64,000 nt of DNA, taken from the NCBI RefSeq assembly GCF_016026235.1, contig NZ_CP065613.1. One strand, given 5' to 3'. The number at the start of each line of letters is the position of its first letter. Within the stretch, counting starts at the first letter, position 1. This DNA is from Escherichia coli (lineage in GTDB: Bacteria; Pseudomonadota; Gammaproteobacteria; Enterobacterales; Enterobacteriaceae). This document shows, piece after piece, positions 31,396 to 48,092 of the stretch. Under the pieces are notes generated by a model, which was not told the DNA's origin, made no database searches, and saw only the letters and a program-made list of their open reading frames with translations. Both the position numbers and the translations under genes were made by a program.

Positions 31396-31412
31396 TTGGA
31401 AAAATATTCCAA
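31396..31412. promoter_or_regulatory. AllR-type operator TTGGAAAAATATTCCAA in the allS-allA intergenic region
   Basis: Imperfect palindrome with TTGGAA/TTCCAA arms, the same core as the site upstream of gcl. Confidence 0.65.
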
Positions 31413-32945: not shown

Positions 32946-32962
32946 TTGGAAAATTTTTCCAA
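32946..32962. promoter_or_regulatory. AllR-type operator TTGGAAAATTTTTCCAA upstream of gcl
   Basis: Perfect 8-1-8 palindrome 21 bp upstream of the gcl ATG. Confidence 0.7.
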
Positions 32963-43005: not shown

Positions 43006-43791
43006 TTAAATCTCTACGTCGCGGTTGCAATCTTTCGAGTAAATATAGCTGAACGCTTCACCACGCCCTACGCCATAACCAGCCTGTAAAGAATAAGCGC
43101 CCATAAAGATGTAATCGCCTTTTTTCACCGGGATCCAGTTATTGTCGAGGTTATAAACCCCCTGACCGGAAAGAATATAGGCACCGTGTTCCTGAACGTG
43201 TGTTTCGATATAACCATGGCTGGCACTTGGTGCAAAAGAGAGGATATGCATGTTCATATCAAAACCTAACTCTTTGGGCAGAAAATCCAGCAGGATCACA
43301 TCATCCATACCTTCATAGTGAATGCGTTCCAGTTCGCTGGCATTGCCAGAAACCAGCCACGGTGCATGGCCTTCTACCGGAACATAGCGGCGCTTATATA
43401 AAAAGATTTGGCTGTCTTCGGACTGGGCGTTAACAAACGTCATTAAGGAGCCTGGCGGGCAATAAAGATAGCCACCTTCGCTTAAGGCAAATGTTTTGCC
43501 TTCGGCTTTGGCAGTGATATTTCCAGAGATCACATACAGGAACGTTTCAATGCCTTCGCCACCGAAGCCCTGTTGGTTGCCACCGTTTTGATGCAGTGTG
43601 ACCAGATAATCAACAAAAGAGGCACCCAGCTTTGGCGTGGAGAGGATTGTCGCGTCACAATTTTCAAAGCCCGGAATAATATTTTTTACCAGACCGTCTG
43701 GTGTTAACAGTGCGAAATTACCGTGTTTCACAATCGCACGGTTAGCCAGTAAATCATCGCGGTAACCGGTGACGTTATTTAAATATCCCAT
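43006..43791 (-). CDS. allE: (S)-ureidoglycine aminohydrolase (bicupin)
   Basis: 261-aa ORF recognised as YlbA/AllE. Confidence 0.9.
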   Translation of the reverse strand: MGYLNNVTGYRDDLLANRAIVKHGNFALLTPDGLVKNIIPGFENCDATILSTPKLGASFVDYLVTLHQNGGNQQGFGGEGIETFLYVISGNITAKAEGKTFALSEGGYLYCPPGSLMTFVNAQSEDSQIFLYKRRYVPVEGHAPWLVSGNASELERIHYEGMDDVILLDFLPKELGFDMNMHILSFAPSASHGYIETHVQEHGAYILSGQGVYNLDNNWIPVKKGDYIFMGAYSLQAGYGVGRGEAFSYIYSKDCNRDVEI

Positions 43792-45058: not shown

Positions 45059-46108
45059 TTATTGCGCAAAGGGATTTTTCGTTTCGTATGACGTGTTATA
45101 AAGCGCGTCGGAAATTAAATACTGGTAAATATCATCAACAATTTCGATGCCTTCGACGGCGGCTTTGCGTTGTTTAATATCCTGATCCTGTCCGGGATAA
45201 TAAACCTGATTAAAACCGGGCGCGGGGGTAATGGCATTTAATTCGCGCATGGTCTGGCTAAGATGTTGACGGAATAATTCGCTGGAGGAGAAAAAGTTCG
45301 GGTTAATAACTACATGTAATTGCCCCAAATTACGCCCGGCGTGTAAATCGTCATACATCGAACTAACCTGTCGCCCGAACGGTAAGCCGAGTAAGACGCC
45401 TGAGAGGACGTCAATCATCATCATCAGGCCATACCCTTTCGGCCCGGCTGCGGGGAGCAGAGCATGTACCGCGAACGGATCGGTTGTTGGTGCACCGTTT
45501 TTATCGACCGCCCAGGTATCCGGGATAGACATATTACGCGAGCGGGCGTCGAGCACTTTTCCCCATGCCTGTACGGTAGTCGCCATATCAAAGGTAAGGA
45601 TCTCGTCGCCTTCTCCCGGCGCGGCAAAGGCCAGTGGGTTAGTACCGTAGTAAATTTCCGCGCCGCCAAACGGCACCACCATTGGATCGGACTGGCACAT
45701 CGAAATGCCAATTAATCCGGCGCGGGCTGCCTGCTGCACAAAATAAGAGATTGCGCCGCTGTGACCCATCCGGCTGATACCGACCACCGCAACGCCATTT
45801 TGCTGGGCGGTTTCGATGGCATGTTCCATACCCATTTTCGCCGCGACCTGTCCGGCGGCATTGTCGGCATGTAAAATTGCCGAGCACGGCCCGGTTTCCT
45901 CAAGACGAAACTCCGGTTCGCGGTTGGTGCCGCCTTTTGAAATGCGTTCCGCGTAGTATTCCACGCGCACCGCGCCATGAGAGTGGATCCCTCTGGCATC
46001 GGCGTAAACCAATACTTCAGCCACGGTTGCAGCGTGCTCACGTTTTAACCCAGCCTGGCAGAGTTTATTCTCAATTAGCTGGTGGAGTGTTTCCCGACTG
46101 ATTTTCAT
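45059..46108 (-). CDS. allD: Ureidoglycolate dehydrogenase
   Basis: 349-aa ORF (Ldh2/malate-sulfolactate dehydrogenase family). Confidence 0.9.
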   Translation of the reverse strand: MKISRETLHQLIENKLCQAGLKREHAATVAEVLVYADARGIHSHGAVRVEYYAERISKGGTNREPEFRLEETGPCSAILHADNAAGQVAAKMGMEHAIETAQQNGVAVVGISRMGHSGAISYFVQQAARAGLIGISMCQSDPMVVPFGGAEIYYGTNPLAFAAPGEGDEILTFDMATTVQAWGKVLDARSRNMSIPDTWAVDKNGAPTTDPFAVHALLPAAGPKGYGLMMMIDVLSGVLLGLPFGRQVSSMYDDLHAGRNLGQLHVVINPNFFSSSELFRQHLSQTMRELNAITPAPGFNQVYYPGQDQDIKQRKAAVEGIEIVDDIYQYLISDALYNTSYETKNPFAQ

Positions 46109-46167
46109 CTGTCTTCCTTTTTAACGACGGTGTGAAGCATGACTGCAATTAACATACAGGGAAAATA

Positions 46168-46187
46168 TCTGGATTATGTGATCCAGA
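46168..46187. promoter_or_regulatory. Perfect palindrome TCTGGAT-N6-ATCCAGA in the allD-fdrA divergent intergenic region
   Basis: 7-bp arms with a 6-bp spacer, about 60 bp upstream of the allD start; candidate operator, for example for the LysR-type activator AllS. Confidence 0.4.
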
Positions 46188-46424
46188 CAGGCAAAAAAAT
46201 ATAGTTAGAATTTATTTGATAATCTTCGCGCTTTTAACCTGGTTTTTAAAACAACCATGCTTATTAAAAAATAACGCGTAATAGTCTGGCGGTTATTTGA
46301 ATTCTTTTGTTAATAATCCCTGTGTGATATTCATCACCTTATTTACCCGTTGTCATCGATACCGTAATCGCCACATTAACACTGCTCGTGCAATTGCCAT
46401 GGGTGCAATTTTTAAGGAGTTGTT

Positions 46425-48092
46425 ATGATCCACGCCTTTATTAAAAAAGGGTGTTTTCAGGATTCGGTCAGTTTAATGATTATTTCACGAAAACTCAGCG
46501 AATCAGAAAATGTTGATGATGTTTCCGTAATGATGGGTACGCCCGCCAATAAAGCGTTATTAGATACCACAGGTTTCTGGCATGACGATTTTAATAACGC
46601 CACGCCGAACGATATTTGCGTGGCAATTCGTAGCGAAGCGGCGGATGTGGGGATCGCGCAGGCGATTATGCAGCAGCTTGAAGAGGCGCTAAAACAACTG
46701 GCGCAGGGGTCAGGCAGCAGCCAGTCCTTGACGCAGGTGCGTCGCTGGGACAGTGTCTGTCAGAAATTACCCGATGCCAATCTGGCGCTGATTTCAGTGG
46801 CTGGCGAGTATGCGGCGGAGCTGGCGAATCAGGCGCTGGATCGCAACCTCAACGTGATGATGTTCTCCGATAACGTCACGCTGAAAGATGAAATCCAACT
46901 TAAAACCCGCGCGCGAGAAAAAGGCTTGCTGGTGATGGGGCCGGACTGCGGTACGTCGATGATTGCCGGCACGCCGCTGGCTTTTGCTAACGTGATGCCG
47001 GAAGGCAATATTGGCGTCATTGGCGCTTCCGGTACCGGGATTCAGGAGCTGTGCTCGCAGATTGCGCTGGCAGGGGAGGGAATTACTCACGCGATTGGCC
47101 TTGGCGGCCGCGACCTCAGCCGTGAAGTGGGCGGCATCAGTGCGCTAACAGCGCTGGAAATGCTCAGTGCAGACGAGAAAAGCGAAGTGCTGGCATTTGT
47201 TTCAAAACCACCTGCCGATGCTGTGCGTCTGAAAATTGTTAATGCCATGAAAGCAACCGGCAAACCGACGGTGGCGCTGTTTTTAGGTTATACCCCGGCG
47301 GTGGCCCGTGACGAGAATGTCTGGTTTGCCTCCTCGCTGGATGAGGCCGCACGCCTGGCTTGCCTGCTTTCACGCGTTACGGCGCGACGTAACGCGATAA
47401 CGCCAGCCAGCAGCGGATTTATTTGCGGTTTGTATACCGGCGGTACGCTGGCTGCCGAAGCGGCGGGATTACTTGCCGGACACCTTGGCGTGGAAGCCGA
47501 TGATGCCCATCATCACGGCATGATGCTCGACGCCGATGGTCACCAGATTATTGACCTCGGCGATGATTTCTACACAGTCGGGCGTCCCCATCCGATGATC
47601 GACCCAACCTTACGCAACCAGTTAATTGCCGATCTCGGCGCTAAACCGCAAGTGCGTGTGCTGCTGCTTGATGTCGTGATTGGCTTCGGTGCGACTGCCG
47701 ATCCTGCCGCCTCGCTGGTAAGCGCCTGGCAAAAAGCCTGTGCTGCGCGTTCAGACAATCAACCACTGTATGCCATTGCCACGGTGACAGGCACTGAACG
47801 TGACCCGCAATGCCGCTCGCAGCAAATCGCCACGCTGGAAGATGCGGGGATTGCGGTCGTGAGTTCGCTACCGGAAGCCACCTTGCTGGCGGCAGCGTTA
47901 ATTCATCCGCTCTCACCTGCCGCACAGCAACACACACCGTCATTACTGGAAAACGTCGCCGTGATTAACATCGGATTACGCAGTTTTGCGCTGGAGCTAC
48001 AAAGCGCCAGCAAACCGGTTGTGCATTACCAATGGTCGCCAGTCGCCGGCGGCAATAAAAAACTGGCTCGTTTATTAGAACGTTTGCAATAA
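46425..48092 (+). CDS. fdrA: FdrA (CoA-binding / succinyl-CoA synthetase alpha-like domain protein)
   Basis: 555-aa ORF recognised as FdrA. Confidence 0.85.
   Translation: MIHAFIKKGCFQDSVSLMIISRKLSESENVDDVSVMMGTPANKALLDTTGFWHDDFNNATPNDICVAIRSEAADVGIAQAIMQQLEEALKQLAQGSGSSQSLTQVRRWDSVCQKLPDANLALISVAGEYAAELANQALDRNLNVMMFSDNVTLKDEIQLKTRAREKGLLVMGPDCGTSMIAGTPLAFANVMPEGNIGVIGASGTGIQELCSQIALAGEGITHAIGLGGRDLSREVGGISALTALEMLSADEKSEVLAFVSKPPADAVRLKIVNAMKATGKPTVALFLGYTPAVARDENVWFASSLDEAARLACLLSRVTARRNAITPASSGFICGLYTGGTLAAEAAGLLAGHLGVEADDAHHHGMMLDADGHQIIDLGDDFYTVGRPHPMIDPTLRNQLIADLGAKPQVRVLLLDVVIGFGATADPAASLVSAWQKACAARSDNQPLYAIATVTGTERDPQCRSQQIATLEDAGIAVVSSLPEATLLAAALIHPLSPAAQQHTPSLLENVAVINIGLRSFALELQSASKPVVHYQWSPVAGGNKKLARLLERLQ

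Follow-up and report, generated by a model that had tools for sequence, protein, structure and literature searches.

The inverted repeat that lies between the divergent genes allD and fdrA (also called allF) of Escherichia coli appears to overlap an asymmetric element of the allD promoter, a class II site of the CRP type, and the palindrome is probably not itself a functional unit. We hold this reading, which comes from comparing sequences, with moderate confidence. Only one side of the repeat is conserved among related species; that side is a strong CRP half-site, it stands at a constant distance from an invariant TAnnnT, and the same spacing is found at the CRP-bound site of the neighbouring allF promoter.

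Under this reading, the fdrA-side arm and most of the spacer (TCTGGATCACAT, 46187..46176) would form one consensus half of a site for a CRP-type activator, centred at 46184.5. Lying about 41 bp upstream of the predicted allD start, the site would be of class II and would stand in for a -35 element. The allD-proximal arm would fall in unconstrained DNA that separates the activator site from the -10 hexamer, and its complementarity to the other arm would be an accident limited to Escherichia. AllS and ArcA would exert their effects from more distant upstream positions.

The repeat and its setting

Throughout, the window is the whole 64,000-nucleotide stretch of DNA that was analysed, which holds the entire allantoin cluster. 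An earlier account, made from the letters alone (the sequence-only reading), had described a perfect 20-bp palindrome about 60 bp upstream of allD and about 240 bp upstream of fdrA, and had suggested that it might bind AllS or another dimeric regulator. The bases reported there, TCTGGATTATGTGATCCAGA, are indeed those of the window, and the distances are right, ORF coordinates giving 60 bp between the repeat and the start codon of allD and 238 bp between it and that of fdrA. The two gene names are borne out by the RefSeq annotation, and the repeat does sit in the regulatory DNA of the divergent allD and fdrA (allF) promoters. The term perfect 20-bp palindrome, on the other hand, overstates the symmetry: the element is a 7+6+7 interrupted inverted repeat, whose spacer, TATGTG, is not self-complementary. 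A repeat search returns two arms of 7 nt each (46168-46174 and 46181-46187), 100% complementary and 6 nt apart, which the flanking A46167 and C46188 do not lengthen.

The intergenic region is 316 bp long. Across 45900-46700 the DNA shows 99.8% identity to E. coli strain SCU-316, and 5402 of 5426 complete genomes carry this region. In K-12 MG1655 the repeat occupies positions 546423-546442. Table 1 collects the features discussed below.

Table 1. Features of the allD-fdrA intergenic region and its flanking genes (window coordinates; A1 is the alignment of 25 intergenic regions described in the text).
Feature	Position	Strand	Basis or remark
allD CDS (ureidoglycolate dehydrogenase)	45059..46108	-	ORF and RefSeq annotation
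Predicted allD -10 hexamer TATGTT	46151..46156	-	TAnnnT invariant in A1 (T278, A279, T283)
Inverted repeat TCTGGAT-TATGTG-ATCCAGA, 7-bp perfect arms, 6-bp spacer	46168..46187		Unchanged in K-12
allD-proximal arm, not conserved outside Escherichia	46168..46174		0.69 bits; at most 4/7 in 33 loci
Conserved core TCTGGATCACAT, candidate CRP-type half-site and flank	46187..46176	-	Invariant GATCACA in A1; PWM
Putative asymmetric CRP-type 16-mer TGTGA-TCCAGA-CAGGC, centre 46184.5	46177..46192		One half consensus, other half non-cognate
Conserved block GATTATCAAATAAATTCTAAC(TAT), upstream of the core	46201..46224	-	1.25 bits mean; at about -57 to -80 relative to the predicted start of allD
AllS-bound fragment (EMSA, crude lysate), without the repeat	46222..46281		PMC12535856
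Complete CRP site TGTGATATTCATCACC, centre 46330.5, for the allF (fdrA) promoter	46323..46338		Top PWM score in the window, 18.4 bits
Predicted allF -10 hexamer TACCGT	46360..46365	+	TAnnnT invariant
fdrA / allF CDS	46425..48092	+	ORF and RefSeq annotation

A conserved candidate half-site upstream of allD

One genome per species carrying AllD was scanned, giving 80 loci, and in 34 of these fdrA lies divergently, 295-507 bp upstream of allD. Twenty-five of these allD-fdrA intergenic regions were aligned (A1), and the complementarity of the two arms was scored in 36 Enterobacterales loci. On the allD strand, GATCACA (46183..46177) is invariant in A1, and the surrounding TCTGGATCACAT is largely conserved. 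This core falls within 160 nt of the allD ATG in 35 of the 36 Enterobacterales loci; in the remaining one, from Serratia Ag1 (L025), it is found further upstream, 205 nt from the ATG. Some of the records with an enterobacterial type of allD-fdrA region (L011, L012, L045 and others) carry odd organism titles, among them a 'Sporobacter termitidis' MAG and 'Chryseobacterium sp. 18061', which suggests contamination or mislabelling of those assemblies.

The other side of the repeat behaves differently. All seven positions of the arms are complementary in E. coli only, six of the seven in E. whittamii, and between one and four in the 33 loci from outside Escherichia. Where E. coli has ATCCAGA in the allD-proximal arm (allD strand), Citrobacter has TTAGATT, Klebsiella TTAAGTT and Serratia ATTCCCC. 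Mean information content is 0.69 bits in this arm, compared with 1.69 bits in the spacer, 1.46 bits in the distal arm and 0.88 bits over the whole intergenic region. A palindromic operator should have both arms conserved, or co-varying, in orthologous promoters, and neither pattern is seen among the 36 loci. Since only one arm is conserved, a symmetric operator for a dimer is not supported, and the two arms probably match by coincidence, in Escherichia alone. The suggestion that a dimeric regulator acts here survives in part: CRP may well bind at this position, but the idea of two symmetric arms serving as the operator fails on the allD-proximal arm.

In order to score CRP-type sites we used a position weight matrix (PWM) built from 39 Footprint-seq sites (PMC12871828 Table 1), leaving out the allD/fdrA entry. 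By this matrix the conserved half scores 12.17 of a maximum of 13.42 bits and ranks second among the 127,962 half-positions in the window. The core agrees with the consensus tctaGATCACAt at all but one of 12 positions; the part of the CRP consensus concerned is its centre together with its right half (tctaGATCACAttt). It contains at least one consensus CRP half-site with its preferred flanks (GA-TCACA-ttt). Its 3' flank is A/T-rich in most species, the Proteus loci being an exception; a preference of CRP sites for A/T-rich flanks is described in PMC12871828.

The full site is a different matter. The 16-mer as a whole scores 1.19 bits (rank 245 of 63,981), compared with 9.78-21.92 bits for the training sites. 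Its other half, GCCTG, scores -10.97 with the PWM, matches TGTGA at none of five positions, and is not conserved in any species or lineage. A canonical CRP site would have both halves near consensus and a full score in the known range, and the 16-mer has neither. We conclude that the allD element is a single strong half-site and not a canonical CRP site. Its centre of symmetry under the CRP-type reading, 46184.5, also differs from that of the repeat, 46177.5. The weakest CRP sites are reported to lean mainly on one half-site, and TCCGCtggagaTCACAttt, with a poor left half, is listed with a Kd of 10 nM (PMC12871828). In Table 1 of that paper, a single CRP site is given for allD/fdrA, on the allF side. 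The accessible literature yielded no report of CRP dependence of allD, neither the repeat sequence nor the phrase 'allD promoter' was found in the literature searched, and a search for work linking allD with FNR, ArcA or ChIP returned nothing useful.

Twenty nucleotides downstream of TCACA lies the invariant TAnnnT of allD, whose invariant positions are the key positions of a -10 hexamer. The hexamer reads TATGTT in E. coli, TATTTT in Klebsiella, TACATT in Serratia and Proteus, and TACTAT in a Photobacterium. From this sequence we infer an allD start near 46143-46144, which would put the centre of the 16-mer 40.5-41.5 bp upstream of it. The arrangement ATCAC[A/G]-N19-21-TAnnnT is present upstream of allD in 46 loci, spanning the Enterobacteriaceae, Yersiniaceae, Erwiniaceae, Budviciaceae and Morganellaceae and one Photobacterium (Vibrionaceae); it occurs in 89 of 4000 shuffled upstream regions (2.2%), and in none of the Firmicutes loci. 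A scan with the sigma-70 consensus, in which both hexamers were required, detected no promoter on the allD strand, a result that fits an activator-dependent promoter.

Such an arrangement has a known counterpart in galP1, where the consensus half is promoter-proximal and the distal half is degenerate. Like class II promoters of the galP1 type, allD has one consensus half (GATCACA with an A/T-rich flank) next to the promoter, a degenerate distal half, a centre about 41 bp upstream of the start (a predicted start, in the case of allD) and no recognisable -35. Unlike them, it has a distal half with no match at all to TGTGA, and its promoter also needs AllS and is active only anaerobically.

The allF promoter, its regulators and a possible AllS site at allD

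On the other side of the intergenic region, the allF promoter has a complete CRP site, TGTGATATTCATCACC, about 150 bp from the allD element. When coordinates are matched, its centre falls at K-12 546585.5, in agreement with the 'novel CRP site' at K-12 546586 to which purified CRP bound with a Kd of 9.8 nM in Footprint-seq (PMC12871828 Table 1). GTGA-N6-TCAC is found in 31 of 34 loci, followed 21-22 nt on by TAnnnT, and this arrangement implies a predicted allF start near 46372, with the CRP site at -41.5. The two elements share the orientation of TCAC relative to their own gene, a distance of 20-22 nt to an invariant TAnnnT, and the depth of their conservation. They differ in that the allF site has both halves, scores 18.4 bits and is bound by CRP, whereas the allD element has one half and scores 1.19 bits as a full site. 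That CRP rather than another protein would bind the allD element is our inference, as is any effect on allD expression.

Transcription of allF requires AllS and ArcA (Kim & Kim 2025, PMC12535856). The authors of that study centred a predicted AllS motif (PRODORIC) on -181 from the allF ATG, or about 46244 in the window, and showed that a 60-bp fragment, -203/-144 (46222-46281), was shifted by an AllS-containing lysate. The AllS band shift was done with crude lysate only, with an unrelated protein as the control. A second fragment, -142/-83 (46283-46342), was shifted by a lysate containing ArcA-P. We observe that the strong CRP site TGTGATATTCATCACC lies inside this second fragment, and CRP in the crude lysate could contribute to the ArcA shift. 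The same study predicted SoxS and OxyR motifs at -237 and -224 (about 46188 and 46201, the SoxS motif being at the edge of the repeat); deletion of either regulator gene only slightly raised allF expression, under anaerobiosis, and both candidates are set aside on this ground. Deletion of allR left allF expression unchanged (PMC12535856).

Within the intergenic region, conservation is lowest in the fragment to which AllS was assigned (0.69 bits), and 9 of the 13 differences that set the strain apart from K-12 fall there. One of these is in a mini-palindrome, AACCTGGTT, where G46242 is A in K-12. Further repeats lie immediately upstream of the allF ribosome-binding site, at 46388-46410, where a direct repeat of GTGCAATT (two copies) accompanies the inverted repeat AATTGC-N7-GCAATT; both overlap a hairpin (46383-46405) that resembles a terminator. 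From Escherichia to Klebsiella and Superficieibacter the inverted repeat AATTGCAcccatTGCAATT is kept, though not in Serratia, and it may be a leader structure or an allF operator.

Between the published AllS fragment and the repeat is the conserved block 46201-46224, which reads GATTATCAAATAAATTCTAACTAT on the allD strand. A similar sequence, GATTATTAAC, is found at 46319..46310, adjoining the predicted ArcA motif. AllS and ArcA are both candidates to bind the block; read as an ArcA direct repeat, it is a poor match by eye.

This block and the core together allow a different account of the allD promoter, in which the LysR-type AllS has its promoter-proximal 'activation' site in the core and its 'recognition' site in the block, with AllS and not CRP occupying the allD -35 region. 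We regard this as rather unlikely. The two conserved stretches are centred near -69 and -38 if the start is at about 46144, which is where LysR-type regulators typically have their two sites. They also share ATCA[A/C]ATAA in E. coli. Expression of allD is strictly dependent on AllS (Rintoul 2002, as cited in PMC12535856). The poor conservation of the published fragment agrees with this account as well, and because the band shift relied on crude lysate and an unrelated control protein, the true AllS site may lie elsewhere. However, the sole experimental binding data place AllS at 46222-46281, a fragment that leaves out the repeat and starts 35 bp beyond it, and the proposal of the sequence-only reading that the repeat is an AllS site is at odds with this result. 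The repeat has the intergenic region and the regulon in common with the AllS site, and an account of allD activation has to include the two, but no T-N11-A dyad is centred on the element; a symmetric T-N11-A, which is 13 bp long and centred on a base, cannot fit the repeat because the latter has 20 bp and its centre falls between two bases. Furthermore, GATCACA stays unchanged all the way from Escherichia to Proteus and a Photobacterium; over such a distance one would expect a LysR regulator dedicated to one pathway to change together with its site. The specificity of CRP is unchanging, and such invariance is a better fit to a global factor. Finally, the same TCAC-to-TAnnnT spacing recurs at the proven CRP site 150 bp away.

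It is unlikely that the conserved bases are instead a core-promoter element recognised by RNA polymerase alone, such as a weak -35-like ATCACA or part of a CAWWWT -10, with the repeat again coincidental. ATCACA matches TTGACA at four of six positions, and an alternative -10 for allD, CAWWWT at 46178..46173 (CATAAT in E. coli), is nearly as conserved as TAnnnT, following directly on GATCA in 24 of the 25 aligned genomes. Yet ATCACA stands 20 nt from TAnnnT, a longer distance than an ordinary sigma-70 spacer covers; seven invariant bases together with a semi-conserved TCTG upstream are more than a -35 or -10 hexamer needs; and the scan of the allD strand described above did not find a consensus-like promoter.

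Significance of the palindrome and of the half-site

Perfect inverted repeats with 7-bp arms are not rare in this DNA. The window has 89 with spacers of 0-10 (in 19 of these the spacer is exactly 6), compared with about 53 in first-order Markov simulations; when intergenic regions of 316 bp and this composition were simulated, one or more such repeats turned up in 28% of them. The repeat is neither longer nor better than chance would give. The sequence-only reading had proposed looking for the motif elsewhere, and, allowing up to two mismatches, no second copy was found in the 64-kb window. At this frequency, and lacking a second copy, the repeat alone is no evidence of function. A sequence inside allE (43290-43309, GCAGGATCACATCATCCATA) resembles it with three mismatches and includes the GGATCACAT core; this is probably a chance match.

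Nor does its fixation within the species carry much weight. Of 5318 matching E. coli genomes, 4953 keep an identity of 99% or more over the 101 bp around the repeat, but the whole of 46109-46224 is likewise nearly invariant in the species and is identical between K-12 and this strain; the 13 differences between the two all fall within 46225-46347. E. coli GCEC19 (L082, NZ_CP137765.1) carries an IS1 in the spacer of the repeat, at the equivalent of window positions 46172-46180. The insertion has a 9-bp target duplication, GATTATGTG, and parts the conserved GATCACA from the predicted allD -10.

The conserved activator half-site with its -10 would be an ordinary kind of element, one that seems so far undescribed at allD. 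A more far-reaching reading, in which GATCACA-N20-TAnnnT is not a CRP site but the target of the factor confining allD (allDCE) to anaerobiosis, or in which a palindromic operator specific to the Escherichia lineage lies on top of it, seems to us quite unlikely.

Very unlikely, too, is the simpler proposal that the 7+6+7 repeat of E. coli is the true operator of a dimeric regulator, for example a repressor keeping allD off in air. Both arms are perfect and are fixed in K-12 and in practically every E. coli genome. Expression of allD is confined to anaerobic growth, a restriction for which PMC12535856 names no factor at allD. Moreover, if CATAAT were the -10, the repeat would span about -21 to -2, a classic position for a repressor. 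Against the proposal stand results given above: the allD-proximal arm keeps 6/7 complementarity in E. whittamii and no more than 4/7 in the 33 other loci, a repeat of this quality is expected at chance level and has no second copy in the window, and its fixation is uninformative in a stretch that is identical in the two strains compared. VirtualFootprint put a SoxS motif at -237, bordering the repeat, but loss of soxS had only the slight effect on allF noted earlier.

Three known kinds of element were compared with the repeat and set aside. The sequence-only reading was right that it does not resemble the AllR operator (TTGGAA-N5-TTCCAA): AllR-type operators are found in the window only at 31396-31412 (TTGGAAAAATATTCCAA) and 32946-32962 (TTGGAAAATTTTTCCAA), and although the AllR operator (TTGGAAAA-N-TTTTCCAA) is, like the repeat, a palindromic element of the same gene cluster, the two sequences are unrelated. 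As an FNR site (TTGAT-N4-ATCAA), the repeat offers TGGAT-N6-ATCCA, spaced by 6 and not 4, and its invariant bases are TCAC, of the CRP type, and not TCAA; no FNR motif was found in the region by the authors of PMC12535856. As a sigma-54 promoter it offers GG-N10 with CC or TC after it in place of GC, and A1 shows no conservation of this pattern.

We give almost no credence to an RNA hairpin in the allD leader, or a terminator, as the role of the repeat: the minus-strand RNA can form a 9-bp stem (-11.2 kcal/mol, z = -3.8) that is followed by TTTTCCC and was flagged by a terminator scan, but the pairing arm is not conserved in the 36 loci, no gene ends upstream on the allD strand, the best Rfam match scores 14.6 bits against a threshold of 40, with no family assigned, and, given a predicted allD start at about 46144, the repeat is probably not transcribed.

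The restriction of allantoin use by E. coli to anaerobic conditions has so far been explained only in part, and as for how the allD operon is controlled, the need for AllS is all that is established. Returning to the proposed class II CRP-type half-site at allD, we regard it as a modest refinement of a known regulon and not as a new kind of element. It also carries a warning, namely that the fragment used in the published ArcA band shift contains a strong CRP site. If the reading is true, the divergent allDCE and allFGHK promoters (the oxamate branch) would share one design, each with a CRP-type site at -41.5 and with AllS and ArcA acting from a common upstream region, and this shared design would tie the scavenging of purine nitrogen to carbon status.
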